Shown here one piece after another: positions 3,280 to 30,345 of a stretch of 64,000 bases of DNA. The translations under genes were made by a program, and so were the position numbers. Under the pieces are notes generated by a model. The model was not told the DNA's origin. It worked only from the letters and a program-made list of their open reading frames with translations, and did not search any database. The first letter of the stretch is position 1, and each line of letters begins with the position of its first letter. Location of the stretch: positions 17-64,016 of the forward strand of contig JBGPJC010000003.1 in the NCBI GenBank assembly GCA_041485165.1, written 5' to 3'. Source of the stretch: Terriglobia bacterium (GTDB lineage Bacteria > Acidobacteriota > Terriglobia > Acidiferrales > UBA7541).

Positions 3280-4926
3280 ATGGCCGTCAGGCAGAACGAT
3301 CCAGGGATCACATTGTCACCAGAGCAGCCCAAATCGGAATCGGTGAACCCCTGGGCCCCGCTGCGCCAGCCGCTGTTCCGTGCTTTGTGGACGGGGTCGG
3401 TAGTCTCCAACATCGGGACGTGGATGCAGAATGTTGGCGTCGCCTGGCTGATGACGTCGCTTGCGCCAACGCCGCTGATGGTGGCCCTGGTCCAGACCGC
3501 GGCAACTCTTCCCGTGTTTTTCGTCGCCTTGCCGGCCGGCGCGCTGGCCGACGTGGTAGATCGCCGGCGCCTGCTGCTGGTGACTCAAGGCTGGATGATG
3601 GCTGCCGCCGGAATCCTGGGCGTGCTGACGCTTGCCGGCCTCACCACGCCGCAGACTTTGCTCTGGCTCACCTTCATGTTGGGACTCGGCGACGCCATGA
3701 ACAATCCCGCCTGGGGCGCCATCGTCCCGGAGATCGTCCCGCGCTCCGACCTCTCCTCTGCACTTAGCCTCAATTCCGTAGGCTATAACCTCGCGCGCGC
3801 GGTGGGCCCGGCGCTGGGAGGACTCGTGGTGGCCGCGGCGGGCGCGGGGTCGGCGTTCTTGTTCAACGCGGCTTCCTTTCTCGCGGTGATGTTCGTGCTC
3901 TTCCGTTGGCGGCGCGCTCCCATGCAGACCACGCTCCCGGCGGAGCAGATCCTCGGCGCGGTGCGCTCGGGCCTGCGCTACGTGCGCAATGCCCCGCCGG
4001 TGAAGGCGGTCCTGGTGCGCTCGTTTGTATTCATTTTCTCGGCCAGCGCTCTCTGGGCGCTGTTGCCGCTGGTGGCGCTCCAGCAGTTGGGACAAGGCTC
4101 CATCGGCTACGGCGGGCTGCTTACTTGCCTGGGGCTGGGCGCGGTGCTCGGCGCTGCATTCCTGCCCGGGTTGCGTGCCAAGCTGGCCGTGGATGTGTTC
4201 ACCGCCGCGGCGACGGTGGTCTTCGGGCTGGCGATGTTTGCGCTCCCCTCTCTTCCTTACAAGCCGCTGCTTTACGCCGCTATGATGCTTGCCGGCGGCG
4301 CCTGGCTGACCGTTCTGGTCAGCATGAATGTGGCGGTGCAGAACTCGACGCCGGTCTGGGTTCGGGCGCGGGCGCTGGCCGTTTACATTCTTGTTTTCCA
4401 GGGCGGATTCGCCATCGGCAGCCTTTTCTGGGGGTGGGTGGCTAAATTCTCAGGAGTTCCCACTGCGCTGGAGGCCGCTGGGATCGTCCTCTGTGCGGGC
4501 ATCATCATCACCAATCGTTATCCGCTTTCTTCCGCCGAGGGTCTGGACCTGCGGCCGGCGGCGAGAATGGCGGAGCTGGAAGCGCTGGACCACCCCGCGC
4601 CCGAACAAGGGCCGGTCATGGTGACCATCGAATACCGTGTGGATCCTGAAAGCGGGGTGGAGTTCGCCGAAGCGATGCGCGCAGTCCGGCGCATCCGCGT
4701 GCGCGACGGCGCCATCCAGTGGGGATTGTTCCACGATTTGGCCGACTCCGGGCGTTTCCTGGAGACGTTTGTGGTGGAATCCTGGGCCGAGCACCTGCGC
4801 CAGCACGACCGGGTGACCGCGGATGACCGCGCCATTCTGATCAGCGCCCAATCCTTCCACGTCGGCGAGGCCCCTCCGCGGATCTCCCATTTGATTTACA
4901 GCTATCCGCGAGGCGGCGAGCTGTAA
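3280..4926 (+). CDS. MFS transporter (EntS/MFS_3-like) with a soluble C-terminal extension
   Basis: About 12 predicted TM segments in the first ~410 aa. The VDRxDRR-like motif (ADVVDRRRLLL) is typical of the MFS_3 'transmembrane secretion effector' family. The last ~130 aa are hydrophilic. Confidence 0.85.
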   Translation: MAVRQNDPGITLSPEQPKSESVNPWAPLRQPLFRALWTGSVVSNIGTWMQNVGVAWLMTSLAPTPLMVALVQTAATLPVFFVALPAGALADVVDRRRLLLVTQGWMMAAAGILGVLTLAGLTTPQTLLWLTFMLGLGDAMNNPAWGAIVPEIVPRSDLSSALSLNSVGYNLARAVGPALGGLVVAAAGAGSAFLFNAASFLAVMFVLFRWRRAPMQTTLPAEQILGAVRSGLRYVRNAPPVKAVLVRSFVFIFSASALWALLPLVALQQLGQGSIGYGGLLTCLGLGAVLGAAFLPGLRAKLAVDVFTAAATVVFGLAMFALPSLPYKPLLYAAMMLAGGAWLTVLVSMNVAVQNSTPVWVRARALAVYILVFQGGFAIGSLFWGWVAKFSGVPTALEAAGIVLCAGIIITNRYPLSSAEGLDLRPAARMAELEALDHPAPEQGPVMVTIEYRVDPESGVEFAEAMRAVRRIRVRDGAIQWGLFHDLADSGRFLETFVVESWAEHLRQHDRVTADDRAILISAQSFHVGEAPPRISHLIYSYPRGGEL

Positions 4927-4947
4927 ACGGGGGCCGCGGAAAGAGAA

Positions 4948-5148
4948 TCACGCGTACTGGATGCGGCACCCGGTGCGTTCCGCCAGAGCATAGAAACAGT
5001 TCGGGTGGTAGCTCACGTCCCCGTGCGTGGGACTGGGGATGCACTTGGTTTCCGGCGGAATGACCACGCCGCACCGCGGGCAGAATTGGTTGGTGCATTT
5101 TTGCTTGATCACATGGAAGGTCAGTACGTTTTTCACCGGCATTGGCAT
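4948..5148 (-). CDS. small Cys-rich hypothetical protein (possible zinc ribbon)
   Basis: 66-aa ORF with C-x4-C-x2-C (CTNQFCPRCG) plus later Cys and His residues. No other support is available. Confidence 0.35.
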   Translation of the reverse strand: MPMPVKNVLTFHVIKQKCTNQFCPRCGVVIPPETKCIPSPTHGDVSYHPNCFYALAERTGCRIQYA

Positions 5149-5270
5149 CTCCCTCAGAGAGCGTGCTGGACCCCTCCTAGTATAGGGAAGGGGAGGGCGC
5201 TGGCAAGAGCGAAACGCGGAGAAAGATTGCGAAAGTTTCTACTCCGTGAATTCGCTCCGCCGGACCCCGG

Positions 5271-7193
5271 CTAGCCGGGCAAGCCCAGCCGCTTTAGATA
5301 CTCTTTGAAGCGCGGGTCGGAACGGATGGGATCCAGCTTAGGGTCAACCTTCAATCGGGCCACGCCGATGTCGTGCTGTTGAAAGGCCTTTTCCAGCCAC
5401 AGGAATGCCTTGTCTTTCTCTCCCAGCGCGCAATAGGTCACCACCAGATGGTAGGGATTCACGTAGGAGTGCGCTACCTGCTCGTTGAGGTGGTTGACGA
5501 TCCAGCGGCGCACCTCCTGGATTCCTCCGCTGGCGTATGCGCGGCGGAAAGCCAGGGCACGCTCGCCCGGCGTGTCGCCGATGATCATGGTTTTTTCATA
5601 TTCTTTCACTGCTTCATCGTACATGCCCTTCTGGTTGTAAACCCACCAGAGGTAGACGTGAGCGGGGAAGAAGTGTGGATCCATCTCCAGCGTCTTGCGC
5701 AGGACGGGGATGGCCTCGTCATAGCGGCGGGCGTCGTAGAGAACGTAGCCGACCACGGCATTAATGATCAGCGAGAGCGGGTCGAGTTCCAGCGCACGCT
5801 GGATCTCCGCCAGCGCTTCCTCGTGCCGGCCCTGCGCGGAGAGATATTCCGCCCGCCACTGGTGCGTGGTGGCCAGCCCGGGATTAATCTCCAGAGCCCG
5901 CTCGAACTCCGCATCCGCCGTCTTCAAATCGCGGTCGTATTCCCAGGCGATCTCTGCCTGTAGGGCATGCGGGCTGGCCAGTTCCTTGTCGATCTCCAGA
6001 GCTTTCTTGGCTGCTTCCCGGGCCTTGGGATAGGCCTCGCTGGCCGGAATGACCAGCCAGGCGCCCAGGACCGCATAGGACTCACCCAACCCGGCGTAGG
6101 CCGGCGCGTAGTTGGGATCCTTCTCGATGGCGGAGCGGAATTCTTCCAGGCTCTTTCTCAGATCCTTCTCAGTGCGCTTGCCCCAATAATAACGGCCCTT
6201 CAAATAGTTTTCATACGCCGCTGGGTTCACCGCGGGCGCCACGCTCACGCTAGCTGGGCGGGCGGGGAGAAGCTGCAAAGGCAGGGAGCGGACCACGCTG
6301 GCGGCAACGTCGCGCTGGATGGCGATTACATCAGAAGCATCGCGATCATAGCTCTCCGCCCACAATGGGCTCTGGTCGCGGGTGCGGATGAGCCGCACGG
6401 AGATGCGCAGCCGGCCATTGGCCCGGCGAACGCTGCCCTCCAGCACGAAATCCACATTCAATTCGCGGCCGATCTGCTGGACAATTTTGTTGGTGTTCTT
6501 GTACTGCATGGTCGTGGTTCGTGCGATCACGCCGAGTTCCTGAGGATGCGACTGGGCCAATTCGGTGATCAGCTCGTCGGTCATGCCATCTGAAAAATAA
6601 TCCTCGCCTGGATCGGCATCGAGCTGGCCAAAGGGCAGAACCACCAGGTGCAACCGGTCGGGAGCGGGCTTCACCGCGTTGGAGAACACCGGGCGGAAGA
6701 AATATACCGCGGTGCTCAGCAGAACCAGGGCCATCAGCGCGAAGACTGCGGTGGGCATCCGGAATCCACGCAGCGCCACTCCCGTTGCCGGCGCGGGCGA
6801 CGTTTCCGCCGCCAACGGACGTTGCGGGAAAGTCTCCTGGAGAGCAAGCTCGGGTCCTACCGGTTTGACCGGAGCGATAAAGCAATAGCCGCGGCGGGGA
6901 ACTGTCTTGATGAAAAGAGGATTGTCCGCGGAATCGCCGAGCGTGCGACGAAGCTTGTTCAAAGCGGTGTTCAGGTTGGCGTCAAAATCAACAAAAGTGT
7001 CCGCCGGCCACACTCGCTGGCGCAACTGTTCCCGCGTGACCAGCTCGCCGGCCTGCTCCAGCAGAAGCGCCAGGACCTGAAACGGCTTCTCCTGTAACTT
7101 GATGTTTTCGCCGTTTCGCCTCAGCTCGCCGCGGCGCAAATCGGCTTCGAATGATCCGAAGCGCACGCGCTCGATAGAATTGGTTTGTTCCAT
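5271..7193 (-). CDS. CadC/OmpR-type winged-helix transcriptional regulator with TM segment and TPR repeats
   Basis: The N-terminus (FGSFEADLRRGELRRNGENIKLQEKPFQVLALLLE...VPRRGYCF) is a Trans_reg_C wHTH domain. One hydrophobic segment follows (AVFALMALVLLSTAVYFF). The C-terminal third carries repeated TPR-like helices. Confidence 0.85.
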   Translation of the reverse strand: MEQTNSIERVRFGSFEADLRRGELRRNGENIKLQEKPFQVLALLLEQAGELVTREQLRQRVWPADTFVDFDANLNTALNKLRRTLGDSADNPLFIKTVPRRGYCFIAPVKPVGPELALQETFPQRPLAAETSPAPATGVALRGFRMPTAVFALMALVLLSTAVYFFRPVFSNAVKPAPDRLHLVVLPFGQLDADPGEDYFSDGMTDELITELAQSHPQELGVIARTTTMQYKNTNKIVQQIGRELNVDFVLEGSVRRANGRLRISVRLIRTRDQSPLWAESYDRDASDVIAIQRDVAASVVRSLPLQLLPARPASVSVAPAVNPAAYENYLKGRYYWGKRTEKDLRKSLEEFRSAIEKDPNYAPAYAGLGESYAVLGAWLVIPASEAYPKAREAAKKALEIDKELASPHALQAEIAWEYDRDLKTADAEFERALEINPGLATTHQWRAEYLSAQGRHEEALAEIQRALELDPLSLIINAVVGYVLYDARRYDEAIPVLRKTLEMDPHFFPAHVYLWWVYNQKGMYDEAVKEYEKTMIIGDTPGERALAFRRAYASGGIQEVRRWIVNHLNEQVAHSYVNPYHLVVTYCALGEKDKAFLWLEKAFQQHDIGVARLKVDPKLDPIRSDPRFKEYLKRLGLPG

Positions 7194-11800: not shown

Positions 11801-13636
11801 ATGACGACCCCGATTCGCAACATCGCCATCATCGCCCACGTGGACCATGGCAAGACCACGCTGGTTGACGCCATGCTCCGCCAGAGCGGCATCTTCCGCG
11901 CCAACCAGGTTTTGACCGAGCGGGTGATGGATTCCAACGATCTCGAACGCGAGCGCGGCATCACTATTTTGGCCAAGAATACCGCCGTCTTCTTCCACGA
12001 CACCAAGATCAACATCGTGGACACCCCAGGCCACAGCGATTTTGGCGGCGAAGTCGAGCGCGCCCTGCGCATGGTGGACGGCGTGCTCCTGCTGGTGGAC
12101 GCCAGCGAGGGGCCGCTGCCGCAGACGCGCTACGTTCTGCAGAAGGCCTTGCAGGCCAAGCTGCCGCCTATCGTCGTGCTCAACAAGATTGACCGCGCCG
12201 ACGCCCGCACGCCTGCCGTTCTCGACGAGATCTACGACCTTTTCATTGACCTCGATGCCGCCGAAGATCAGCTCGACTTCCCCGTGCTCTACACCAACGC
12301 GCGGACGGGTGTAGCCCACCGCGAGCTGGGCGACTCGTCAGACAGCCTGCTGCCGCTGTTCGAGGCCATCGTGGCATCTATCCCCGGGCCGAGCGGCGAC
12401 CCGGAAGGCGTCCTGCAGGCGCAGGTCACCAACATCGACTACAGCGAATACCTCGGGCGCATCGCCATCGGACGCGTATTCAGCGGCACGTTTCGCCGCG
12501 GCGCTGATGTGGGCATCGCCAAGCTTTCCGGAGCCATTGAGCCCACGCGGATCACCAAGCTGTTCACCTTCCGCGGCCTGGAGCGCGACGAGGCCGAGCA
12601 GGTCACCTGTGGCGACATCGTCGCCATCGCCGGAGTCGAAGGCATCCAGATCGGCGAAAGCATCACCAGCATCGATAACCCCGCGCCATGCGAGCCCCTG
12701 GACATCGACGAGCCCACCCTGGGCATGGTCTTCACCGTCAACACCTCGCCGCTGGCGGGCCGCGACGGCACCTATGTCACCTCACGCGACCTGCGCGACC
12801 GCCTCAGCCGCGAGCTGCTGACCAACGTCTCCATCCGCGTTACCGACGCTGACACTCCGGAGGCATTCCGCGTGCTCGGCCGCGGCGAACTCCAGCTCGC
12901 TATCCTGATCGAAACCATCCGCCGCGAAGGCTACGAACTGATGGTCGGCAAGCCGGAGATCGTGGTGCGCACGGAAGGCGGCCGGCGGCTCGAACCGTTG
13001 GAAATGCTGGTGGTGGATTGCCCGGAAGAGTTCATCGGCATCGTCATCGAAAGCCTGGGCAGCCGCCGGGGTGAGATGTTGAAGATGGTGAACCACGGCT
13101 CGGGCCGTGTGCGCATGGAATTCCGCATCCCCTCGCGCGGCATGATCGGTCTGCGCGGCCAGATGCTTACCGACACGCGCGGCACCGCACTGATCCATTC
13201 CCTCTTCGCCGGGTGGACCGACTATGCCGGGGAGATGGCCATGCGTCCTACCGGAGCGCTGGTGGCCGACCGCTCGGGCGACTCCACGGCCTTCGCGCTG
13301 TGGAACCTGCAGGAGCGCGGCGAGTTGTTCATCGGGCCGGGGAGGGAAGTGTACGAGGGCATGATCGTGGGAGAAAACTCCCGCGAGCAGGACATGGACG
13401 TCAACGTCACAAAAGAAAAGAAGCAAACCAACATGCGCTCGTCCTCCGCGGACGAAGCCATCCGGCTGATCCCCCACCGCGAGCTGAGCCTCGAGCAGGC
13501 CATCGAATTCATTGCCGACGACGAATTCGTCGAGGTCACCCCGAAGAATATCCGCCTGCGCAAGAAAGTACTCGACGCCAAGCGCCGCCCGCGCCGCTGG
13601 CAGGAAATCCGCGCCAGCCTCGCGCAGCAATCCTGA
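11801..13636 (+). CDS. typA: translational GTPase TypA/BipA
   Basis: [22 protein letters not shown] (G1), DTPGH (G3) and NKID (G4) motifs are present, and the length and C-terminal domain are BipA-like. The ATG at 11801 is preceded by GAGGAA. The ORF opens earlier at GTG 11786. Confidence 0.95.
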
Positions 13637-13669
13637 GGTTCCCCCGCAAAGCTGCGATCGCCGGCACTG

Positions 13670-14158
13670 CTATTTCTTTTTCTTTTGCAGGCGCTTGAGG
13701 AGCTGGATCTGCCCGGCGTGATAAATGTCGTGAAAGCTTACCCCGAGGATGGAATCGAAGGCCGCCCACTTCGAACCCGGCGGTGGAAGCATGAGCCGGT
13801 CCGCGGGGAACGCTTCTACGGCTGCGCGAAGGGCGCGGTGTTCCCCCTCCAGCAGCGCGACGGCGTCGCGCCACGCCTTTTCGCCGCTGTTGCCGGTCGC
13901 CGGAAACCAGTTACTGCCTTTCAGCGCAAACGACCTGCGCTTTTCTCCGCGCAGCAGCCTGCGCACCGCGTACTTCCAGTAGGTGGAGTGCAGCACCAGC
14001 TCCCAGATGTTGTGACGCCCGCGAGCAGGCCGCCAGGCGGCTTGACCGGCCGTGACCCGGCGAATGCTTCCGCGCAGATTGGTTCCGTGCCAGGTCTTGT
14101 GGTCGTAGCCTTGGTCCAGCGCCCGCAGGAGAGATTGGATCTCCGGATGATTCACCAT
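13670..14158 (-). CDS. DinB-family protein
   Basis: 162 aa with a DinB-like four-helix pattern and spaced His residues (WHGTNL..., HSTYWKY, HDIYHAGQI). Confidence 0.8.
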   Translation of the reverse strand: MVNHPEIQSLLRALDQGYDHKTWHGTNLRGSIRRVTAGQAAWRPARGRHNIWELVLHSTYWKYAVRRLLRGEKRRSFALKGSNWFPATGNSGEKAWRDAVALLEGEHRALRAAVEAFPADRLMLPPPGSKWAAFDSILGVSFHDIYHAGQIQLLKRLQKKKK

Positions 14159-14361
14159 TACGCACCCCGCTTTGCGGTCTTTATCTTTGCGCGAAAATCA
14201 TAGCAGTTCCCGGTCCGCCAGCCACCCCGGGCTGGTTCTTTTATCACCGAACACGCCTGTGCCGAGCGGAGGATTGTGCGGATGCAGATGCAACCCCCGC
14301 TTCACCTGGAAACTCTTATCCTGATAGACTGAAGCAGAGGGTGGAAGAAGGCGCGGGAAAA

Positions 14362-15330
14362 ATGCGAAGCGTTATTTTCAAGTGTTTTGACCAACTCAGA
14401 TCGCCGACCCTGCTAGCGGTGCTCATGCTGTTCTCGGGTACATTTCTTTCTCTCCCGCTTACTGCGCAGCAGGAAGGACCGATGTCCGTGCCTCCTCTTC
14501 CTCCCCCGCGGGCGGAAAAGCCGCGTAACCCGCCGGCGCCCACGCCTCCGCCGCCGCAGAAGGTTGCGACTACCCAGCAATCCTCCTCCGGCATCTCCAA
14601 CCAGCCTCCGGCGCTCCCTGTTGAGCAGATCATCCAGCGGTTTGCGGAGCGCGAAGCGGAGTTCAGGACGGAACGCGGTAACTATACCTACGAGCAAACT
14701 TTCGTTGTGCAGGAAATTGGAGACAGTGGCCGGCCGGAAGGCGAATACCGCATGACCAGCGACATCCTCTTCACCCCGGAGGGCAAGCGCTACGAAACGG
14801 TCACCCATGCGCCTGCCCCCACTCTCCACAAGATATTTCTGTCCGAGCAGGATCTCGACGATTTGAAGAATGTTCAGCCCTTCGTCCTCACCACCGAGGA
14901 GTTACCGAAGTACGACATCACCTATGTGGGTCGCGAACAAGTGGACGAAGTCAGCGCCTATGTATTCGATGTGGGGCCGAAAAAAATTGAGAAGAATCAG
15001 CGCTATTTCCAGGGGCGCATCTGGGTGGATGACAAAGACCTGGAGATCGTCAAGACCTATGGAAAAGCCGTGCCCGACATCCGCAAGGGCAACAACGAAA
15101 ATGTTTTTCCCCGCTTTGAGACCTTCCGCGAGAACATCGAAGGCCACTACTGGTTCCCAACCTACACCCGCTCCGACGATGTCCTGCACTTCCGCTTTGG
15201 CGATGTTCACATCCGCATGAGCGTTCATTACGCGGACTACAAGCGCTTCCAGTCGACCTACCGGATCCTGGGATCGAGCCCCATCAAGCCGGACAAGCCC
15301 GAGAAGCCGGACAAGCCCGACAAGCCGTAG
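14362..15330 (+). CDS. secreted hypothetical protein with Pro-rich linker and C-terminal PDKPEKPDKPDKP repeat
   Basis: A signal-like N-terminus (LLAVLMLFSGTFLSLPLTAQQ) is followed by a PPLPPPRAEKPRNPPAPTPPPP linker and a globular beta-rich domain. I cannot name a family with confidence. Confidence 0.6.
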   Translation: MRSVIFKCFDQLRSPTLLAVLMLFSGTFLSLPLTAQQEGPMSVPPLPPPRAEKPRNPPAPTPPPPQKVATTQQSSSGISNQPPALPVEQIIQRFAEREAEFRTERGNYTYEQTFVVQEIGDSGRPEGEYRMTSDILFTPEGKRYETVTHAPAPTLHKIFLSEQDLDDLKNVQPFVLTTEELPKYDITYVGREQVDEVSAYVFDVGPKKIEKNQRYFQGRIWVDDKDLEIVKTYGKAVPDIRKGNNENVFPRFETFRENIEGHYWFPTYTRSDDVLHFRFGDVHIRMSVHYADYKRFQSTYRILGSSPIKPDKPEKPDKPDKP

Positions 15331-15380
15331 TCTTTGCAGGCCGGCCACCGCTGTAATTGAGCTGCCACCGGGCAAACGAC

Positions 15381-16577
15381 TCAACCGCCGCTCGATACCA
15401 CAGGCACAGCCGAGAGCGCTTGTCCGGCACAGAAGCCCGACGCCCAGGCCCACTGGAAATTGAATCCACCAAGGTGCCCGGTGACGTCGACGACTTCTCC
15501 GATAAAGAACAGTCCGCATACCTTTCGGCTTTCCATGGTCTTGCCGGAGAGCTCATCGGTATCAATTCCGCCCACGGTGACCTCGGCTTTCTCGTAGCCT
15601 TCCGTACCCGCAGGAATGATCTTCAAGTGATGGATGTCCTGCTCCAGCAAATCCAATGAGCGATTGGTCCAATCCTCCGGCGGGTGCAGGTCGAGCCAGC
15701 GGTCCGCCAGACGGTGCGGGATGATGCTGCGGAGTGCGCTTCTGGCCGTGGTCAGGTCGCGGCGTCCGCGCGCATCGCGGAGTGGAGTTGTCCATTGCCG
15801 CTCGGGCGCCAGATCAATCAGCAGCGGTTCGGACTCTTTCCAGTAAGAAGAAATTTGCAGAATCGCCGGACCACTCAATCCACGATGCGTGATCAGCATG
15901 TTCTCCCGGAAGCGCTGCCGGCCGCAGGATGCGACAACCTCGGAGGAGATTCCCGCAAGGTCGCAGTAATGCCGGCCATCTTCCTCATCGAACTTGAGCG
16001 GCACCAGGCCCGGTCGGCACTCGCGAATCGCCAACCCGAACCGGACAGCCAGGTCATAGCCAAAGGAAGTCGCTCCCAGTTTTGGGATGGACAGACCACC
16101 GGTTGCCACGACGAGTGCCGGGGCAGAAAACTCAATTTTGTCTGCACGGATGTGGAAACCGATGCTATGCCGCACTTCCTGAACAGTGGTGTTGAGAAAA
16201 ATGCGCACTCCGGCGAGACTGCACTCCTTTTCCAGCAGGGTGACGATGTCTCGCGCGGAGCGGTCGCAGAAAAGCTGGCCGAGCGTCTTCTCGTGATACG
16301 GAATGTTGTGCTTGGCGATGAGTGCAAGGAAATCAGATGGCGTATAGCGGGCGAGTACGGACTTGCAGAAGTGTGGATTTGAAGAGAGGAAGTTTTCCGG
16401 CCGCGAATGCAGATTGGTAAAGTTGCAACGGCCACCGCCGGAGATCAAAATTTTCTTCCCGATACGATCCGCGTGCTCCAGTACGGCCACATGCATGCCG
16501 CGTTTCCCGGCCTCGATAGCACACATCAGGCCGGCCGCGCCGGCTCCGAGGACAACGGCGTCGAAGGTGTGGGTCAC
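15381..16577 (-). CDS. BaiN/HI0933-family NAD(P)/FAD-dependent flavoprotein
   Basis: DAVVLGAGAAGLMCAIEAGKRG...ILISGGGRCNFTN is the characteristic HI0933-like signature. The C-terminus contains GLFFIGEVVDVTGHLGGFNFQWAW. Confidence 0.9.
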   Translation of the reverse strand: MTHTFDAVVLGAGAAGLMCAIEAGKRGMHVAVLEHADRIGKKILISGGGRCNFTNLHSRPENFLSSNPHFCKSVLARYTPSDFLALIAKHNIPYHEKTLGQLFCDRSARDIVTLLEKECSLAGVRIFLNTTVQEVRHSIGFHIRADKIEFSAPALVVATGGLSIPKLGATSFGYDLAVRFGLAIRECRPGLVPLKFDEEDGRHYCDLAGISSEVVASCGRQRFRENMLITHRGLSGPAILQISSYWKESEPLLIDLAPERQWTTPLRDARGRRDLTTARSALRSIIPHRLADRWLDLHPPEDWTNRSLDLLEQDIHHLKIIPAGTEGYEKAEVTVGGIDTDELSGKTMESRKVCGLFFIGEVVDVTGHLGGFNFQWAWASGFCAGQALSAVPVVSSGG

Positions 16578-23397: not shown

Positions 23398-23417
23398 TCT
23401 TTCGGGAACCCGTTCAG

Positions 23418-23473
23418 AGTTGAAAGTTGAAGGTTGAAGATTCAGAGTTTCCCCCCTCCCCCTCCCCCCCCCC
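23418..23473. repeat. low-complexity junction: three (A/G)GTTGAA heptamers followed by a C-rich tract ending in a C10 run
   Basis: Read directly: AGTTGAA AGTTGAA GGTTGAA GATTCAG..., then CCCCCCTCCCCCTCCCCCCCCCC. Confidence 0.6.
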
Positions 23474-23481
23474 TGTTTTTT

Positions 23482-23660
23482 GTAAGAGTGAGAAACAAAG
23501 GAGTTGCGAGGAGGAGGTGGGGAACGTTATCAAAACACGTGGTTTTAAGTGCTGTAGAATGCACACTTGCGAGGAGCTTGCGTAAGAGTGGCCAACAAAG
23601 GAGTTACGAGTACCCGTCCAGCAGGATGGCGGGTAAGAGTGGAATCGAAAGGACTTAAAG
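23482..23660 (+). repeat. three degenerate ~29-bp direct repeats (GTAAGAGTGnnnAnnnAAAGGAnTTnnnAG)
   Basis: The copies lie at 23482-23510, 23582-23610 and 23633-23660. Spacing is irregular (71 and 22 bp). Confidence 0.6.
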
Positions 23661-23976
23661 CTGGATCGCCCCCGTATCACTCTGATTGCTCTGACGCGTG
23701 GCACTGACAGTAACCCCAAGGTATCTTATCACAGAGAATACCTAAAAGCAAGGGAAAAGGGGAGGAGCCGGATCAGGGTAGAAAGTGAGGAGGGGAGAAG
23801 AGCCTCTCGGGCAGTCACCCAACCTACCAGCCGGCCCCAGCGGTTGCGACTTGGGGTGCGTATTGATACAGTTGGTGGGGCCAACCCGACTGAGTCCACC
23901 TCTTCTACTGCCATTTAGCAATTATTAGCCGAGCTTATTACCTTAGAAATGAAAATCGAACAAAAAGCGAATAACC

Positions 23977-24013
23977 TTGTCATTCTGCACCGCGATGGTG
24001 TAAGGTGGTGCAG
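23977..24013 (+). promoter_or_regulatory. candidate sigma70-type promoter with overlapping inverted-repeat operator for the island operon
   Basis: TTGTCA (23977-82), an 18-nt spacer, then TAAGGT (24001-06). The inverted repeat CTGCACC (23985-91) / GGTGCAG (24007-13) brackets the -10 element. All of this is 17-50 nt upstream of the RHH gene ATG. Confidence 0.3.
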
Positions 24014-24029
24014 TGGACGGAAGGTGTCT

Positions 24030-24230
24030 ATGGCGTCGAATATGAAGAGATTTGGGAAAAAGAGCTCTGCGGGATCACCGCGGGCGTCGGTGACTTTCCC
24101 GCCGGACCTCTATCAAGCCCTTGAAGCGCTCGCGAAGAAGAACAAGGTCTCCGTTGCTTGGGTCGTTCGCGAAGCCGCCGAGAGGTATGTCGCTGACCAA
24201 TGGCCGCTGTTCGGGAAAAAATCGGCATGA
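24030..24230 (+). CDS. ribbon-helix-helix (CopG/Arc-type) DNA-binding protein
   Basis: SVTFPPDLYQALEALAKKNKVSVAWVVREAAERYV follows the RHH beta-strand/helix/helix pattern. GGAAGG lies upstream of ATG 24030. The stop overlaps the methyltransferase ATG (ATGA at 24227-30). Confidence 0.7.
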   Translation: MASNMKRFGKKSSAGSPRASVTFPPDLYQALEALAKKNKVSVAWVVREAAERYVADQWPLFGKKSA

Positions 24231-25162
24231 GAGGAACTTCTCCAGTACTGGCTGCGAAGTCTGAAAGAGCTCATTCGATACGCCCGCAAGCGGATTCCAA
24301 CCGGTCCCCTAACCGAGAGCCTCTACCGTTTCCGCTCAAGGATGCTGTTGTCTCCTGTCAAGATAACATTAGCTTCATGAAGTCCCTCCCCCCCGAGAGC
24401 ATGAAGCTGATCGTGACCTCTCCACCGTACAATCTCGGGAAAGAATACGAAACCAAGCGCTCAATGGATGCTTATCTCGACGCCCAGCGCCACACCATTA
24501 CCGAGGCTGTCCGGCTTCTTCACAACGAAGGTTCGATCTGCTGGCAAATCGGAAACTACGTCGAAGACGGAGAGGTGTTCCCACTCGATATCCTTCTGTA
24601 TCCCTTGTTCAAGGAGGCGCGACTCCAGCTAAGGAATCGCATTATTTGGACCTTTGGCCATGGTTTACATTGCCAGAAGCGGTTTTCTGGACGGTACGAA
24701 ACGATTCTGTGGTTCACCAAGAGCGAGCAATATACTTTCCATCTCGATGAAGTGCGTGTGCCGTCGAAATATCCGAATAAGAAGCATTTCAAAGGTCCTA
24801 ACAAAGGCAAGCTCTCGGGAAATCCTCTGGGCAAAAACCCGTCCGATGTCTGGGAGATTCCGAACGTAAAAGCGAACCACGTGGAGAAGACAGAGCATCC
24901 CTGCCAGTTTCCCGTCGGACTTGTGGAGCGCCTTGTTTTGTCTTTGACGGACGAAGGCGACGCCGTTCTCGATCCATACCTTGGTGTTGGCTCAAGCGCG
25001 ATAGCCGCGCTTAAGAATGGGCGTAAAGCTTATGGATGCGATGATGTCCAAGAATACATAGAGGAGACCTGGGAGCGAATAGGCCAGCTACGTTCTGGCA
25101 AGCTGAGGGTGCGCCCGATGAACAAGCCTGTTTATGAACCGCCGCCGAGGGAATGTGAATGA
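24227..25162 (+). CDS. beta-class (motif IV before motif I) exocyclic-amino DNA methyltransferase, N4-C or N6-A
   Basis: LIVTSPPYNLGKEY is motif IV (SPPY). HPCQFPVGLVERLV and VLDPYLGVGSSAIAA (motif I, FxGxG) lie C-terminal to it. Alternative ATG at 24200. Confidence 0.9.
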   Translation: MRGTSPVLAAKSERAHSIRPQADSNRSPNREPLPFPLKDAVVSCQDNISFMKSLPPESMKLIVTSPPYNLGKEYETKRSMDAYLDAQRHTITEAVRLLHNEGSICWQIGNYVEDGEVFPLDILLYPLFKEARLQLRNRIIWTFGHGLHCQKRFSGRYETILWFTKSEQYTFHLDEVRVPSKYPNKKHFKGPNKGKLSGNPLGKNPSDVWEIPNVKANHVEKTEHPCQFPVGLVERLVLSLTDEGDAVLDPYLGVGSSAIAALKNGRKAYGCDDVQEYIEETWERIGQLRSGKLRVRPMNKPVYEPPPRECE

Positions 25163-25623
25163 ACTTTGTCGAAGGGTATTCTCATCGCCACGGTATGGTT
25201 GAGTGGGAAAAGCGGGAACTCGACGAGTGGATCACGGATGTATTCAATGCCCCGGCAATAGCCCTTGAGGCTCACGCAACCAATGCCATTCGAGATCACG
25301 TTCGCCGTGAGCTTACAAACGAGGGCTGGTCCGATGTAGTCGCAATTGCCCCGAACTTCACGAATGTGACGGTCTTCAGCCAGAAGGATGAACTTGCGAT
25401 ACAGCTGCAAACCGGCAATGTTAGCCGGGTGTTTTATGATCTGATAAAACTTCAGTATTTGTTCAGCCGTAACAAGATCGAAGCTGCTGCTCTTGCTGTG
25501 CCGACCAAGGTGGGCGCGCAACTGCTCGGCAGTAATATCGCGAACTTCGAACGTCTATGCGGGGAACTGCAGCTTTACGACCGGATCGTGACGGTGCCAA
25601 TCTTGGTCATTGCCTTCGAATGA
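25159..25623 (+). CDS. BglII/BamHI-fold restriction endonuclease homologue (short, divergent)
   Basis: LAIQLQTGNVSRVFYDLIKLQYLF...AAALAVPTK...VTVPILVIAFE lines up with the BglII segments LVEVQFSNYPFLLNN...VAIIITK...DVPIRLVGL as I recall them. The ATG overlaps the methyltransferase stop (ATGA at 25159-62). Confidence 0.55.
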   Translation: MNFVEGYSHRHGMVEWEKRELDEWITDVFNAPAIALEAHATNAIRDHVRRELTNEGWSDVVAIAPNFTNVTVFSQKDELAIQLQTGNVSRVFYDLIKLQYLFSRNKIEAAALAVPTKVGAQLLGSNIANFERLCGELQLYDRIVTVPILVIAFE

Positions 25624-25630
25624 GGTTGAG

Positions 25631-26965
25631 ATGGTTTATAAGGTTAAGGTTTCTCCCAAGCACGAACGCGAAGCCCAGATAGCACTCGGATGCAAGAGCC
25701 CGATTGAGATGTCAGCCTTCTACGAGTACCAGAACGCACCGCAACTGCTCCCTGTGATTAGAGTCGCGATAGAGCTTTTGATCTACCGCATAGCGAATGG
25801 ACGCACCCGAACGGCGCAGCTCCGGCATGTCCGATCGCATCAGTTGGCCGTCGATTTCTTCAGCGCCGGCCAAGAGAATCAGGAGAGCCAGCAGGCTCAG
25901 CACGACATTCTCGATCGTTTTTCAAAACAAGGAAACGCATCGATCACTCCGATCGCGACCGTTCTTGGCGAAGGCAAGCAGACGGAGCCCATTCTCGTCA
26001 CTGCTTCTGGTGTGGTCGTCAACGGCAACCGCCGATTGTCGGCAATGCGCGAGCTCTACGCCAGTGGCAAAGCAACTTACAACAGTTTCAGCCACGTCAA
26101 CTGCAGGGTGCTTCCCGCCGCGGTGACCGACAAAGAAATCAAAGAAATCGAAATCCGTCTGCAGATGCAGCCAGAAACTAAGCTTCCATACACATGGGTC
26201 AACGAAGCGCTGACGATTAAGGATCTTATGGCCAATGGTTTCACTAAGGATGAAGTGATGCGCGACATGCGCAAGGAGACCTCTCAAGAAATCGATGCCG
26301 CTTTGCAGGCGCTTGTCCATGCAGAGATTTACATGAAGGACTGGCTGAAGCAGCCTGAGGAATATGATCTTGTCGAGGGCGCGAAGCAACATTTTGGCGA
26401 CATGGCGAGGCTGCTGAAGAACAAGAGCGGAGAAGAACTTGAATTGAGCCGTCGCCTCGGTTTCCTCGTCCAGGACAGCTCGAAAGAAATGGGGGATCGG
26501 GCCTATGCGTTTAATTTCAGTTTCGGCAAGAAATCCGCTGAAGTGGCCGAGGCCCTAGCTGTTCGCCTCGGCGTGGATCTGACGGCCGCAGCCACCGAAA
26601 ACAATCAATCCCCGCAGCGACTCGACATCGACATCGAAGACGAAACCGAGGGCGCAAGTTACCAACCCCTAATTGAATTATTGGATGACGCCAGCCGCCG
26701 GGAAGAAGTGTCCGAAGAACTCATCTCGGTATGCGAGAGCATTCGCTCCGCCGAACAAGATGAAAAGCGGGGGCAGGCGGCACTGAAAGCGGCGAAGGAT
26801 GCAAATACGCGGCTGCTTGAGGCCGATATCGCAACGGCCGACCCAGCGACGTATCCTGGAATCGTCGCCCAGCTCGACAGCGTCATCACGCGTGCGACGA
26901 AGCTTAAGGACGAGGTTGCGAACGCAATCTCGAAGTCGAAATCCGCGGTAACTCCGAAGAACTAA
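25631..26965 (+). CDS. ParB/Srx-superfamily N-terminal domain protein with acidic coiled-coil C-terminal half
   Basis: VIRVAIELLIYRIANGRTRT (the L..y..N.R box) and EPILVTASGVVVNGNRRLSAMREL (the ParB-like G-x-x-R-x-x-A box) are present. The ATG at 25631 is preceded by GAGGTTGAG and is 7 nt after the upstream stop. Confidence 0.65.
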   Translation: MVYKVKVSPKHEREAQIALGCKSPIEMSAFYEYQNAPQLLPVIRVAIELLIYRIANGRTRTAQLRHVRSHQLAVDFFSAGQENQESQQAQHDILDRFSKQGNASITPIATVLGEGKQTEPILVTASGVVVNGNRRLSAMRELYASGKATYNSFSHVNCRVLPAAVTDKEIKEIEIRLQMQPETKLPYTWVNEALTIKDLMANGFTKDEVMRDMRKETSQEIDAALQALVHAEIYMKDWLKQPEEYDLVEGAKQHFGDMARLLKNKSGEELELSRRLGFLVQDSSKEMGDRAYAFNFSFGKKSAEVAEALAVRLGVDLTAAATENNQSPQRLDIDIEDETEGASYQPLIELLDDASRREEVSEELISVCESIRSAEQDEKRGQAALKAAKDANTRLLEADIATADPATYPGIVAQLDSVITRATKLKDEVANAISKSKSAVTPKN

Positions 26966-26982
26966 GTCTATTGGCTCATGAA

Positions 26983-28890
26983 ATGACCGCGCCGCCCGTC
27001 GAGATCGAAATTACCTACAACGCGACCACGCTCCGCGGCGCTTTCCGACTTCAATCCACTGGTGACAATTCGATATGGGAGCGCCTGACCCAACGAGTTC
27101 TCGCTCTTGACAGCGATTACGAATTTGGTAGTGGTGTCCTCGATGCTCCGTGGACGACGGTCCTTTCCATCATCCGCGAGTTTGCTCCCTTGCAGCGAAA
27201 GCAGGGGTTTCATTTTCGTCCCGTGGGCCCCGCAAAGGAAAAGATTGATCAGTTCGTCCGTGAATACAAAGCGGTTAAGGATTCACGCGGGACGCTAACA
27301 GCCACGCTCAGTGACAAAGAAGTTGAGCAGCGGCTAAAGGCTGTGGCTTTTACAAAACGCGACCTCAAGACATTTCAGAACCGAGATCTTACGCACCTTC
27401 TTTCACTGGCCAACGGAGCCAATTTCTCGGTTCCCGGCGCCGGGAAAACTACTGTCACTTTCGCTTTGCACCTGATCACTCAGCGCCCAGGCCAGCATCT
27501 TCTAGTTCTGGCACCGAAAAATGCTTTCATCGCATGGCAAGATGTTGTTCGTGACTGCATTGATTCGAATTCAGAAAACAGCAATGCTGAGCCATTCACC
27601 GTGCTTACTGGCGGGGCAGATACAATCGCTGCACTCCTGGAATCCGGTGCAACCCGCTTCCTTATTACTTACGACCAGCTAATACGGATTCCCACCATAA
27701 TAGCCGCGTACCTTTCGCGGCGTCCCGTTCACCTTGTCCTTGACGAATCACATCGCATGAAGGCAGGTATGGCATCGCAGAGAGGATCCCTGCTCCTCAA
27801 TCTGTCATCGCTTGCCGTCCGTCGCGACATTCTCAGCGGAACGCCAATGCCACAATCCCCCAGCGATCTGCAATCACAACTCGATTTCCTGTGGCCGGGA
27901 GCGGGTTTAGGCTTGAAGATTGCTCAAGGGGCGGCCCCAAGGCAGGTCTTGGGCAACCTTTATGTGAGGACAACCAAGAGCGAGTTGGGCTTGCTCAAGC
28001 CACACCGGCAATTCATCCATGTCGAGATGAACCCTGGACAGCAAGCGCTCTATGCGGTCGTGCGCAACGAAGCCCTGAAGCAGTTGAGTTCGCTGAAATA
28101 TGAAAGCCGCGTTGACGTGTACGGCGCGCGGAGGTCGGTGATGACGTTACTGCAGCTGTCAGTGAACCCCGTCCTGGCCCTGCGTTCCATGGCCGAAACG
28201 CAAGAACTTTCCCTCATAGGTTCCGGAATTGTAGACAAGGTGATTGAGGAAGGGCCTTCCCAAAAAATGCGAGCCGTCGCTTCGCTTGCTCGACAGCTTT
28301 CTCGCGATGGTCACAAGAGCGTCATCTGGACGATATTCACCGGGACCATCCTCGAAATGGAGAAGATGCTGGCCGATCTGAACCCGGTTACGCTGTATGG
28401 CGCAATACCCATTGGTGAAGAAGAAGGCGCAGATACGCGAGAGAACCGTATTCGACGGTTCCATGAGGATCCAGCCTGCGCTGTTATGATCGCAAATCCC
28501 TCCGCGGCCGGCGAGGGAATCAGCCTCCATGCAATCTGTCACAACGCCATTTATCTTGATCGCAGCTACAACACGACCCACTACCTGCAGTCGATTGATC
28601 GAATCCACCGCCTCGGACTTAAACCGGGCATCGAAACGTACATTCATATCTTTCAGACGGTAGCTCCGCAAGCAATCGGAAGTATTGACCGCTCTGTCAA
28701 TCACCGCTTAGCTATCAAACTCAGAAATCTGCAGCAGCTTCTTGACGATCCCGATCTTCATGAAATAGCCCTGGATGAGGAAAATGCCGCCGATCCGACG
28801 AACTACGGTATCGAGCTGGATGACCTCATTGATTTGATCGAGGAGCTTGAGGGGAGAGATCTCAACTTTGACGATAGCGAAGAGGAATAA
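26983..28890 (+). CDS. SNF2-family helicase/translocase
   Basis: Motif I is SVPGAGKTT, motif II is LVLDESHRMK and motif III is ILSGTPMPQS. The C-terminal helicase lobe carries AAGEGISLH and QSIDRIHRLG (motif VI). Alternative TTG start at 26971. Confidence 0.9.
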   Translation: MTAPPVEIEITYNATTLRGAFRLQSTGDNSIWERLTQRVLALDSDYEFGSGVLDAPWTTVLSIIREFAPLQRKQGFHFRPVGPAKEKIDQFVREYKAVKDSRGTLTATLSDKEVEQRLKAVAFTKRDLKTFQNRDLTHLLSLANGANFSVPGAGKTTVTFALHLITQRPGQHLLVLAPKNAFIAWQDVVRDCIDSNSENSNAEPFTVLTGGADTIAALLESGATRFLITYDQLIRIPTIIAAYLSRRPVHLVLDESHRMKAGMASQRGSLLLNLSSLAVRRDILSGTPMPQSPSDLQSQLDFLWPGAGLGLKIAQGAAPRQVLGNLYVRTTKSELGLLKPHRQFIHVEMNPGQQALYAVVRNEALKQLSSLKYESRVDVYGARRSVMTLLQLSVNPVLALRSMAETQELSLIGSGIVDKVIEEGPSQKMRAVASLARQLSRDGHKSVIWTIFTGTILEMEKMLADLNPVTLYGAIPIGEEEGADTRENRIRRFHEDPACAVMIANPSAAGEGISLHAICHNAIYLDRSYNTTHYLQSIDRIHRLGLKPGIETYIHIFQTVAPQAIGSIDRSVNHRLAIKLRNLQQLLDDPDLHEIALDEENAADPTNYGIELDDLIDLIEELEGRDLNFDDSEEE

Positions 28891-28892
28891 CG

Positions 28893-29765
28893 GTGACACT
28901 CCACCGACAAGAATCCCTCTTCACCATGAGCGCTCTGAACGGTCTACTCGCGATTCGGCGTTACGCCATTGCTCATCCTAACGTTTTGCTGCCGGAAGTC
29001 GTAACGGCACTGAAGCACGTATCCGCGGACGAGGCCTATCACAATTACGAGGCGGCTGCCACATTGCACAGTCTCGTAGCGCGGGCTGAAAGGCCTGAGA
29101 CCGATATTCCCTTGTTCTTCCGGGAAGCCATTACGACACTCGTTAGGGAGATCAAACCTTGGTGGGTGCGCCTTTCGACTTCGGGACGTGATCGCGTGAA
29201 GGCCGCCCTCAGCATAAACGAAGTTCAATGCTTCGATGCCGCTGGTCTCTTTGCGCAACCGCCGACAGCCGAGATTCTCACATGGTGGGACGCATTGGCC
29301 CATGGAGTCCGTGCGAACGACAATGCGAAGCTATTAGCGCAGGGCCGTGAAGCGGAGCGGCTCACTATGGACTACGAGACGAGAAGATTATCCGACTTGG
29401 GCATTAGCAATCGTCCGCAGTGGATCTCTTTCGACGACAACGCGGCTGGGTACGACGTGCTGTCGTACGAAAGGGGACCTGTTGAACCCGTTGCTAAACT
29501 GATTGAAGTCAAATCGACCGGCCGTCGGCCACGCGAGATTTTCCTGACCCGGAACGAATGGGAAACCGCGCTGGAACGGTTCCCTAACTACTGTTTTCAT
29601 ATCTGGACACTCCCGGAGATGCAGCTGACCGAACTCACCCCGTCTGACCTTAGCCGGCATGTGCCCGAAAATAACGGAAACGGGGTCTGGCAAGTCGTCC
29701 GCATAACCTTAGAGGACGGGGCGCATGGCCCAATCGCCGGATCGTGCGGCGAGGATGGCGACTGA
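28893..29765 (+). CDS. DUF3883 (NOV C-terminal, PD-(D/E)xK-like) domain protein
   Basis: AGYDVLSYERG...KLIEVKSTGRRPREIFLTRNEWETALERFPNYCFHIW matches the DUF3883 pattern GyD..S....iEVK......f.ls.nE...A....y.ly.v. GTG 28893 is 2 nt after the SNF2 stop. Alternative ATG at 28926. Confidence 0.7.
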   Translation: MTLHRQESLFTMSALNGLLAIRRYAIAHPNVLLPEVVTALKHVSADEAYHNYEAAATLHSLVARAERPETDIPLFFREAITTLVREIKPWWVRLSTSGRDRVKAALSINEVQCFDAAGLFAQPPTAEILTWWDALAHGVRANDNAKLLAQGREAERLTMDYETRRLSDLGISNRPQWISFDDNAAGYDVLSYERGPVEPVAKLIEVKSTGRRPREIFLTRNEWETALERFPNYCFHIWTLPEMQLTELTPSDLSRHVPENNGNGVWQVVRITLEDGAHGPIAGSCGEDGD

Positions 29766-29838
29766 CGAAGGCTAGGTTTCCCGGGTGCTTTTTAAGCAGT
29801 CTTGTGACGATGTCAGCGTCGAGCGAATAACTGCTCAT
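29766..29838 (-). pseudogene. 5' remnant (~24 codons) of a PIN-domain VapC-like toxin gene
   Basis: MSSYSLDADIVTRLLKKHPGN resembles the VapC N-terminus (M..yLLDTNvvs.ll...p). The PIN-like similarity stops where the DUF3883 gene ends at 29765. The ATG overlaps the upstream small gene stop (ATGA at 29835-38). Confidence 0.45.
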
Positions 29839-30053
29839 CCCGTTTCACCGGGGTTGAAAGTGGCCCGGTGTAGCTCCAGGTCGGCCTCGAAATCTTTCCA
29901 CCAAGTCTCACCGCGGTCGTCTGGAGTGGCGAGCCAGGAATCCAGCCACTGAAGCAGTTTTGTGTTTCGTGGTCGCAGGCGCCGCGCAGCTCCACTGGAA
30001 TCGGTCACGAGCGACTTTGATTTCCCTCGGCGCAAAATGGATTGCTTGGGCAT
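29835..30053 (-). CDS. small protein in antitoxin position (putative VapB-like partner)
   Basis: 72 aa, translationally coupled (ATGA) to the PIN remnant. The call rests on position only. I do not recognise a family. Confidence 0.35.
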   Translation of the reverse strand: MPKQSILRRGKSKSLVTDSSGAARRLRPRNTKLLQWLDSWLATPDDRGETWWKDFEADLELHRATFNPGETG

Positions 30054-30345
30054 GAGTTTGGGTTTCCGATCCTTTTCTGTTGCGTATCCGGCAAAACCCT
30101 GCTTGCTTATCCTAGCCTAAAGAGCCGCTGAGGGGAAACATCTGGAGGATGGGCGGAGAGATGAAAGCAGATCCCTCGTCCGCCGGAGCTGACTCGGGAT
30201 GACAGTTCTTGGCGTGGGGGGGAACGGGGAGGGAAAAAGATAACGCGGAGGCACAGAGAACGCAGAGTGACGCAGAGTCTGGAAGAGATGGCCAGGATTT
30301 GGAGGTTGGACGGAGGAGGATGGGAGCTGGAAGTTGCGGGTTTGA

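Follow-up and report, generated by a model that had tools for sequence, protein, structure and literature searches.

The 64,000-nucleotide stretch of DNA analysed here (the window) comes from a Terriglobia bacterium (assembly GCA_041485165.1, contig JBGPJC010000003.1, positions 17 to 64,016 of the forward strand). It carries a tightly packed block of six genes, all on the plus strand, which encode in this order a ribbon-helix-helix (RHH) protein, a DNA methylase, a protein of 154 amino acids (aa), a ParB-like protein, an SNF2 ATPase and a DUF3883/NOV_C protein. The subject of this analysis is the 154-aa protein, the gene of which is present in one copy in the genome. It has the fold of the restriction endonucleases BglII, BstYI and BamHI, is predicted to lack their catalytic carboxylates, and may serve as the DNA-reading part of the cassette formed by its neighbours. 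The genes are the following.

25159..25623, plus strand: 154-aa protein of the BglII/BstYI/BamHI fold, predicted to be without catalytic carboxylates, the proposed site reader.
23949..24230, plus strand: RHH (CopG-like) protein, a candidate controller, the gene of which overlaps the methylase start (Pfam RHH_5 and RHH_1, E ~1e-6).
24200..25162, plus strand: beta-class N4/N6 DNA methyltransferase with an SPPY motif (Pfam N6_N4_Mtase 1.3e-48; PADLOC MTase_II 8.5e-78).
25631..26965, plus strand: ParB/Noc/KorB-like protein of ~444-445 aa with a long helical C-terminal half (Foldseek, GNRR box, weak Pfam ddrB-ParB match).
26971..28890, plus strand: SNF2-family ATPase/translocase, start codon uncertain (Pfam SNF2-rel_dom 5e-10, Helicase_C 1e-5).
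28893..29765, plus strand: DUF3883/NOV_C PD-(D/E)xK nuclease, the proposed cutter (Pfam NOV_C 1.1e-12).

The solved relatives of the 154-aa protein are larger (BstYI 203 aa, BamHI 213, BglII 223 and OkrAI 194), and its family is smaller still than OkrAI, which has been called a "minimal BamHI" (PMC3025578). The ATG of its open reading frame and the stop codon of the methylase share an ATGA (25159-25162), and since M1 is common to 81 orthologues, the start was not mis-called. A census of homologues gave 114 close ones of 153-154 aa and, more widely, ~295 clusters at 50% identity, nearly all listed members of which have 150-159 aa. Since most of the listed cluster representatives (~108 of 150) fall in this range, the shortness is a family trait. 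Thus the short length on which the original prediction had remarked is real, and a mis-called start or a truncated gene was ruled out by the ATGA overlap, the shared M1 and the uniform length of the family (~150-155 aa). Compared with BstYI, approx. 50 residues are gone from the N-terminal half, residues 1-118 of BstYI corresponding to residues 1-70 of the query. The C-terminus stops right after the last strand (148-153), therefore the C-terminal minor-groove arm of BamHI and OkrAI is missing.

In the Pfam comparison the protein reached 25.7 bits with the Endonuc-BglII family PF09195 (E 1.1e-5, cutoff 26) and 14 bits with the BamHI family PF02923 (E 0.042, cutoff 22.8), and the precomputed Pfam labels of its homologues name both families. 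When the single sequence was searched against the PDB with phmmer, BstYI was found at E 0.017 and BamHI at 0.11; a profile of 115 diverged members gave 7e-10 for BstYI, 9e-5 for BamHI and 7e-4 for OkrAI. An AlphaFold2 model was obtained from 41 sequences (predicted local distance difference test, pLDDT, 93.1; predicted template modelling score, pTM, 0.87) and compared with the PDB by Foldseek. The top 16 matches were all BstYI, BamHI, BglII or OkrAI, with E values between 1.3e-10 and 4.5e-6 and template modelling scores (TMq) of 0.70-0.81, and the next-best match had an E value of 0.28. No viral relative of the fold was found at E 1e-3 or better in a BFVD search. Chance falls far short of explaining the resemblance to the enzymes of the BglII group, and these 16 matches bear out the shared BglII/BamHI fold, which the original prediction had taken as its starting point. 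The protein is best explained as a derivative of a Type IIP endonuclease of the BglII/BstYI/BamHI type, cut down to a minimal alpha/beta core.

The positions which correspond to the active site of the relatives were located as follows.

25372..25410, plus strand: codons 72-84, the beta2-turn-beta3 hairpin, which holds D...E-x-Q in active relatives (HMMER alignments, DSSP, family composition).
Q82: in the place of BamHI E111, OkrAI E99 and BstYI E128 (HMMER alignments).
Q84: in the place of BamHI E113, OkrAI E101 and BstYI Q130 (HMMER alignments).
V60 (W57+3): in the place of BamHI E77 and OkrAI E71 (HMMER alignment).
V72 or F73: in the place of BstYI D119 (HMMER alignments).

This mapping was made with HMMER alignments and DSSP secondary structure. 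The catalytic residues of BstYI are D119, E128 and Q130. The active-site residues of BamHI are E77, D94, E111 and E113, and those of OkrAI are E71, D86, E99 and E101 (PMC3025578). The alignment register was validated by the chain numbering, since it reproduces the published residues N116, R122, D154 and R155 of BamHI and N104, R110, D142 and R143 of OkrAI. The segment LAIQLQTGN aligns with AIEVQFGK of BstYI, GMEFETGN of BamHI and ALEWETGN of OkrAI. The hairpin of the window protein reads V72 F73 ... D77 E78 (turn) ... Q82 L83 Q84. As strands 71-76 and 79-83 of the model form a hairpin that turns at 77-78, residue 73 pairs with residue 82, in the way D119 pairs with E128 in BstYI. OkrAI D86 aligns beside positions 70-71, and no acidic residue is present between positions 60 and 76 of the window protein.

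The composition of the family at these positions was determined in 137 representatives, 50% or less identical to each other, with the five commonest residues recorded per position. Position 82 is C in 92 of them, Q in 25, T in 4, H in 3 and A in 3, with no acid among the commonest, and position 73 is T in 76, N in 20, S in 19 and F in 8. Positions 70-72 are hydrophobic or T/S (position 72 being I/V), position 60 is variable (E/K/N/R/P) and Q84 is found in all 137. In the 81 close orthologues position 82 is Q (76) or H (5), and position 73 is mostly F (52), followed by T (20) and S (6). Since all 81 have Q or H, and C and Q dominate more widely, Q82 could not be attributed to a recent point mutation or a sequencing error (CAG instead of GAG).

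Gln-x-Gln in the place of the Glu-x-Gln of BglII had been correctly recognised in the original prediction: Q82 stands for the catalytic Glu and Q84 for the third position, which is Q or E. The acidic pair of its KDE motif is likewise where it had been placed, D77 and E78 lying 5 and 4 residues before Q82. As a shifted catalytic pair, D77 and E78 were rejected, because they form the hairpin turn, with DSSP strands at 74-76 and 79-83 on either side, and position 78 is not conserved. E is found there in the window protein alone, D in most close orthologues and V in the 93%-identical one, and the 137 representatives have D (25), R (25), G (17), K (16) or E (14). With Q82, V72/F73 and V60 at the aligned positions and the family composition given above, a complete D...E-x-(E/Q/K) site cannot be mapped onto the protein. 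When it was compared with the catalytic PD...(D/E)-x-(K/Q/E) site, both the Asp and the Glu were found replaced and the third residue, Q84, alone retained; for this reason a place or an annotation among the Type II restriction endonucleases is not warranted for it. The labels found for it in the public records covered here are "hypothetical protein", "restriction endonuclease", "Restriction endonuclease BamHI" and "BglII/BstYI family type II restriction endonuclease". Judged from the alignments, both metal-holding carboxylates are lost, and the loss is ancestral to the whole ~150-aa family and not the lesion of one genome. The suggestion that the cognate nuclease is attenuated or inactive is supported by the lost Glu and also by the lost Asp, which had been overlooked, and we consider with high confidence that the 154-aa protein is no canonical metal-dependent nuclease.

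The protein might still cut DNA by a non-canonical or composite site, by migrated acids (D94, E136) or with residues supplied in trans by a partner. D94 and K97 are invariant, E136 is conserved in 133 of the 137 representatives, and the invariant Q84 is Q also in the active BglII and BstYI. Moreover, D94 follows Q84 at a distance of 10 residues, on the next helix, a spacing which recalls the relocation of the Cfr10I type; in Cfr10I and NgoMIV the catalytic Glu is supplied from a helix. However, residues 60-76 contain no conserved acid that could stand for the first Asp of the PD motif, which is almost universal, the C/Q/T/H/A found at position 82 means that no single chemistry is kept, and the cassette has a separate intact PD-(D/E)xK nuclease. 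Since the active BstYI, which has its own D119 and E128, has the same Y-D-L at the D94 spot, D94 would be a structural or recognition-supporting residue rather than a relocated catalytic acid. Residual nuclease activity of this kind appears improbable to us.

The segments in which the BamHI group reads its target are found at two places in the gene.

25414..25449, plus strand: codons 86-97, G-N-V-S-R-V-F-Y-D-L-I-K, loop and N-terminus of the first crossover helix, corresponding to the N116/S118/R122 segment of BamHI.
25531..25569, plus strand: codons 125-137, S-N-I-A-N-F-E-R-L-C-G-E-L, loop and N-terminus of the second crossover helix, corresponding to the outer-base-pair readers D154-R155 of BamHI.

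Twelve positions (G56, W57, Q84, G86, N87, R90, D94, K97, N126, R132, E136 and P147) are invariant or conserved to at least 96% in the 137 representatives, R90 and R132 being present in 134 each and N126 in 132. In the separate alignment of 115 sequences five of the twelve (Q84, G86, N87, D94, K97) do not vary at all, and each of the remaining seven is conserved to at least 90%. N116, R122, D154 and R155 of BamHI and their OkrAI equivalents contact the major groove and stand at the N-termini of two crossover helices, and the same two helices make up the parallel four-helix bundle of the BamHI/OkrAI dimer (PMC3025578). In an ungapped alignment to BamHI 105-168, N87 corresponds to N116, S89 to S118, S125 to D154 and N126 to R155; BamHI R122 is replaced, and the near-invariant R90 is found one helical turn earlier. 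The crossover helices of the model comprise residues 88-103 and 130-139, with R90, D94 and K97 on one helical face and R132 and E136 on the other helix. By analogy, D94 and E136 would belong to the helix bundle or to the recognition face. Position 125 is S in 41 and D in 32 of the close orthologues, an alternation that would be expected of an outer-base-pair reader. The base-reading positions are conserved, and by comparison with BamHI N87, N126 and the others of this group may contact DNA.

A structural adaptor without specific DNA binding would connect the methylase or the ParB-like protein with the motor and would leave the choice of the target to another component, e.g. to the helix-turn-helix (HTH) of the ParB-like protein. 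This protein matches ParB, Noc and KorB over the N-domain and the HTH region and could read DNA, and the 154-aa protein is without the arms and extra subdomains which its relatives use to enclose DNA. An adaptor would have no need, however, to keep N87, R90 and N126 near-invariant where the two crossover helices start, and contacts with bases or backbone are the best explanation for these residues. We give such an adaptor role little credence.

Comparison of the gene with its closest orthologue (93% identical) gave a ratio of nonsynonymous to synonymous substitutions (dN/dS) of 0.03 at a dS of ~1.3. The gene is under strong purifying selection, and a pseudogene is ruled out by this value. A functionless, decaying relic of a Type II enzyme would agree with the lost catalytic residues. 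It is effectively refuted by the same dN/dS, by the twelve near-invariant positions across 137 clusters, by the equal length in ~295 clusters and by the fixed place of the gene in 83 loci.

These 83 loci consisted of 78 from one-genome-per-species contigs and five from exact-protein look-ups, in which the partners were searched by tblastn with the window proteins. Essentially all loci had the order methylase, BglII-like protein, ParB-like protein, SNF2 and NOV_C, with the genes on a single strand; the methylase was present in 80, the BglII-like protein in 83, the ParB-like protein in 81, SNF2 in 79 and NOV_C in 76. Most of the missing genes coincide with contig ends, and the three loci without a methylase sit at or near such ends, so that the methylase could lie beyond the sequenced stretch. 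In the window itself an N6_N4 methylase was found directly upstream of the 154-aa gene. The hosts are Acidobacteriota, Alpha- and Gammaproteobacteria, Bacteroidota, Verrucomicrobiota, Planctomycetota, Spirochaetota, Nitrospirota, Melainabacteria, Actinomycetota, Bacillota and Latescibacterota, more than ten phyla in all. The nearest relatives of the 154-aa protein (93% and 81% identical) are in Acidobacteriota, and members at 27% and 39% identity keep the same neighbours. In the most distant member examined (L085, 27% identity) the methylase (12638-13576) comes after NOV_C and an HTH_3/XRE-type gene stands before the reader; the cassette keeps its set of genes, but their order can permute.

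The exceptions to the rule of contig ends are two loci that are apparently decayed cassettes. In L082 (9170-9436) a methylase of 70% identity and a fragment of the reader are left, with no ParB-like, SNF2 or NOV_C gene within 9 kb, and in L077 (9200-9463) the methylase, reader and SNF2 matches are fragmentary. Survival of the methylase alone is the usual look of decay in restriction-modification (R-M) systems. One cassette (L001, GCA_016849975) is in a defence-island setting, with a phage-type integrase gene upstream (4396-5586) and McrBC genes (AAA_5 and McrBC) downstream (12600-15710). In the window, the block 23400-30100 looks like a horizontally acquired island, because its GC content of 0.51-0.55 is lower than the 0.62-0.66 of both flanks.

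The methylase is the best-conserved gene of the cassette, with 64-76% identity across phyla and the SPPY motif kept. SPPY is typical of N4-cytosine methylases such as M.BamHI and M.BglII, and it suggests that the window enzyme may methylate cytosine at N4. In the Firmicutes loci L078 and L083 (Bacillota; Paenibacillus lautus) and L073 (Tepidibacillus) a different N6_N4 methylase, 24-25% identical, lies on the opposite strand. The readers of these loci are changed in the reading loops (T85L and S125T, and N126S in L083), and together the other methylase and the loop changes may reflect a switch of specificity. The RHH gene was detected by tblastn beyond the window in only 2 of the 83 loci (L006 and L007, the closest Acidobacteriota), which makes it an accessory or lineage-specific add-on and not a core component; its product is possibly a controller protein.

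As 81 of the 83 loci are without the RHH controller gene, the 154-aa protein might itself be a regulator, which would bind an operator in place of a C protein or would act as a safety catch that holds NOV_C or SNF2 inactive. In defence systems, nuclease domains that have lost their activity frequently act as sensors or regulators, e.g. inactive restriction endonuclease (REase) domains (PMC12839542, PMC10853773). However, the positions conserved across more than ten phyla are the base readers of BamHI and OkrAI, and promoter regions differ from one such host to another. The methylase as the most conserved partner fits a site shared by methylase and reader, and the translational coupling to it by ATGA resembles classical methylase-nuclease pairs. 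A regulatory role is therefore unlikely, in our judgement, although it deserves somewhat more weight than a surviving nuclease or an adaptor.

The third gene of the five-gene cassette encodes a protein which, on the evidence of its model, is assigned to the ParB superfamily, with putative nucleoside triphosphate (NTP) gating. Its Pfam ddrB-ParB match is weak (E 0.0045, under the cutoff), while the G132-N133-R134-R135 box is invariant in 42 orthologues. The AlphaFold model (pLDDT 88.8) had Spo0J 1vz0 as its best Foldseek match (E 5.5e-4, TMt 0.57), and the first ~210 residues also matched Noc, KorB and CTP-bound ParB. The open reading frame listing starts this gene at TTG 25610, overlapping the reader stop codon; ATG 25631 is the likelier start, since the orthologues begin near M-x-Y-x-V. 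In the SNF2 protein the Walker A motif GAGK159TT, D258-E-S-H and QSIDRIHRLG are conserved to at least 97% in 72 orthologues. In the NOV_C protein the same holds for G-Y-D188 and E205-V-K207 (D...ExK) in 75 orthologues, and DUF3883 has been placed in the PD-(D/E)xK superfamily (PMC3424549).

A working model which puts these components together is as follows. The methylase would mark the host sites. The 154-aa protein, as a homodimer, would bind the unmethylated palindrome, possibly with a GATC-type core, which would be the same site that the SPPY methylase protects, and would not cut it. For this it would rely on the two crossover helices which it keeps, and which in BamHI and OkrAI provide the dimer bundle and the major-groove reading residues. 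As the specificity subunit of the five-gene cassette, bound to its site, it would recruit or license the ParB-like protein, a presumed NTP-gated clamp-type protein, and the SNF2 translocase, and the breaks would be made by the DUF3883/NOV_C PD-(D/E)xK nuclease. The grounds for the model are the fold, the family-wide replacement of the catalytic residues, the kept reading positions, the selection on the gene, the synteny and the intact motifs of the partners. DNA binding, sensitivity to methylation, dimerisation, the order of events and NOV_C as the cutter are the parts that we infer.

Several observations weigh against this model. The score of the 154-aa protein with PF09195 is 0.3 bits below the gathering cutoff, and BglII itself was weakly aligned by sequence (E 0.44 with the family profile). 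The conserved acids D94 and E136 remain, and the absence of substitute acids near the scissile phosphate rests on the mapping by sequence and secondary structure. Without the C-terminal minor-groove arm of BamHI and OkrAI the mode of binding may differ. Finally, palindrome avoidance in the host genome singles out no NGATCN site, the observed to expected ratios (O/E) being 0.73 for AGATCT, 0.69 for CGATCG and 0.88 for GGATCC.

In the same genome the strongest avoidance was that of CAGCTG, a PvuII-type site (O/E 0.16, 266 observed against ~1669 expected), which is unrelated to the cassette; GTCGAC had an O/E of 0.43. The scarcity of CAGCTG and GTCGAC hints at other long-resident restriction systems in the lineage.

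On balance we favour the whole picture, a reader with a dead site and cleavage delegated to NOV_C, and hold it to be probable, with moderate confidence. The recognition subunit proposed in the original prediction fits the kept reading positions, the low dN/dS and the linkage to the methylase, SNF2 and NOV_C; its binding, its non-cleavage and the delegation to NOV_C stay predictions, and the ParB-like protein had been missed as the fifth component. More tentatively, the cassette could represent an undescribed, widely transferred class of R-M-like defence, in which a Type IIP nuclease turned into a non-cutting, methylation-sensitive reader nucleates a ParB-like NTP-gated clamp and an SNF2 motor, which together deliver the DUF3883 nuclease to foreign DNA. 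Such a class would combine recognition as in Type II systems, loading in the manner of ParB/parS and cleavage coupled to translocation as in Type I, and for this reading as a whole we would claim plausibility, somewhat short of probability. No published description of the five-gene cassette was found in a full-text literature search, although such an absence is not proof.

If the model is true, a classical Type II enzyme has lost catalysis and has yet been kept, under strong selection, as the component that reads DNA within a larger machine driven by ATP, which would provide a concrete route from simple R-M pairs to multi-subunit defence systems. The fixed ParB-like partner would extend ParB-type clamps to restriction. 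The current labels show the 154-aa protein as an ordinary cutter and pass over a five-gene system in more than ten phyla. A non-cutting and probably methylation-sensitive palindrome reader of ~150 residues would also be a compact natural DNA-binding module, and a possible tool.

Among the known systems, the closest in fold are BstYI and BglII (PF09195) and BamHI and OkrAI (PF02923). The 154-aa protein shares with them the alpha/beta core, the Q/E-T/F-G-N/K loop after the catalytic strand, the P-x-K strand and the N-F-E start of a helix, and with the BglII/BamHI group also the adjacent, translationally coupled beta-class methylase; by alignment it also has positions equivalent to the base readers N116 and D154-R155. 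It differs in its size (154 aa against 194-223), in the lack of ~50 residues of the N-terminal half and of the C-terminal minor-groove arm, and in the apparent replacement of the Asp by V/F (T/N/S in the family) and of the Glu by Q (C/Q in the family). As a simple two-gene R-M pair it was not found; in the fetched loci the reader is followed by the ParB-like, SNF2 and NOV_C genes.

The logic of the proposed system would be that of Type I (HsdRMS), Type III and Type ISP enzymes, where protection comes from a methylase, unmethylated sites are read by a specificity element, a superfamily 2 (SF2) ATPase moves on DNA and a PD-(D/E)xK domain cuts. The components are unlike, the cassette having a predicted dead Type II fold as the reader instead of HsdS or a target recognition domain (TRD), SNF2 as the motor instead of HsdR or Res, a separate DUF3883 protein as the nuclease, an added ParB-like protein and a stand-alone Type II-like methylase. 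Library scans gave no match to the HsdS, HsdR, Res and Mod families in the cassette proteins, ResIII on SNF2 (E 0.0057) being under the cutoff.

The combination of an SNF2 ATPase and a methylase, a nuclease or both, located in defence islands, is shared with DISARM (DrmD), Zorya (ZorD), Dpd (DpdE) and ARMADA (ArmA). The cassette SNF2 matched these distantly (E 1e-14 to 1e-4, NCBIfam and PADLOC), with scores far below the cutoffs (DrmD 26.8 against 610, ZorD 13.2 against 1500), and none of the partners DrmA/DrmB (DUF1998), ZorA/ZorB, Dpd or ArmC/ArmD was found in the cassette. The gene set of ARMADA II also differs, and none of DISARM, Zorya, Dpd and ARMADA has been reported to use a BglII-fold reader. 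Membership in ARMADA II, DISARM, Zorya, Dpd or BREX was rejected, as the signature partners are missing and the scores are below the cutoffs. A relation to MAD4 of MADS (NCBIfam E 0.097) was dismissed as well, since MAD4 belongs to an OLD-type ATPase-nuclease module and the match is noise.

Nuclease domains without activity have been retained elsewhere too. RecC has a dead nuclease domain. The inactive REase domains of BrxHII/RapA and of Orc/Cdc6-linked systems are kept as sensors (PMC12839542, PMC10853773). The principle is shared with the 154-aa protein, a PD-(D/E)xK fold without catalysis being kept for the binding of nucleic acids or nucleotides. Those domains, however, are fused in larger proteins and their recognition surfaces are eroded, whereas the reader of the cassette is free-standing and has kept the sequence-reading positions of a Type IIP enzyme.

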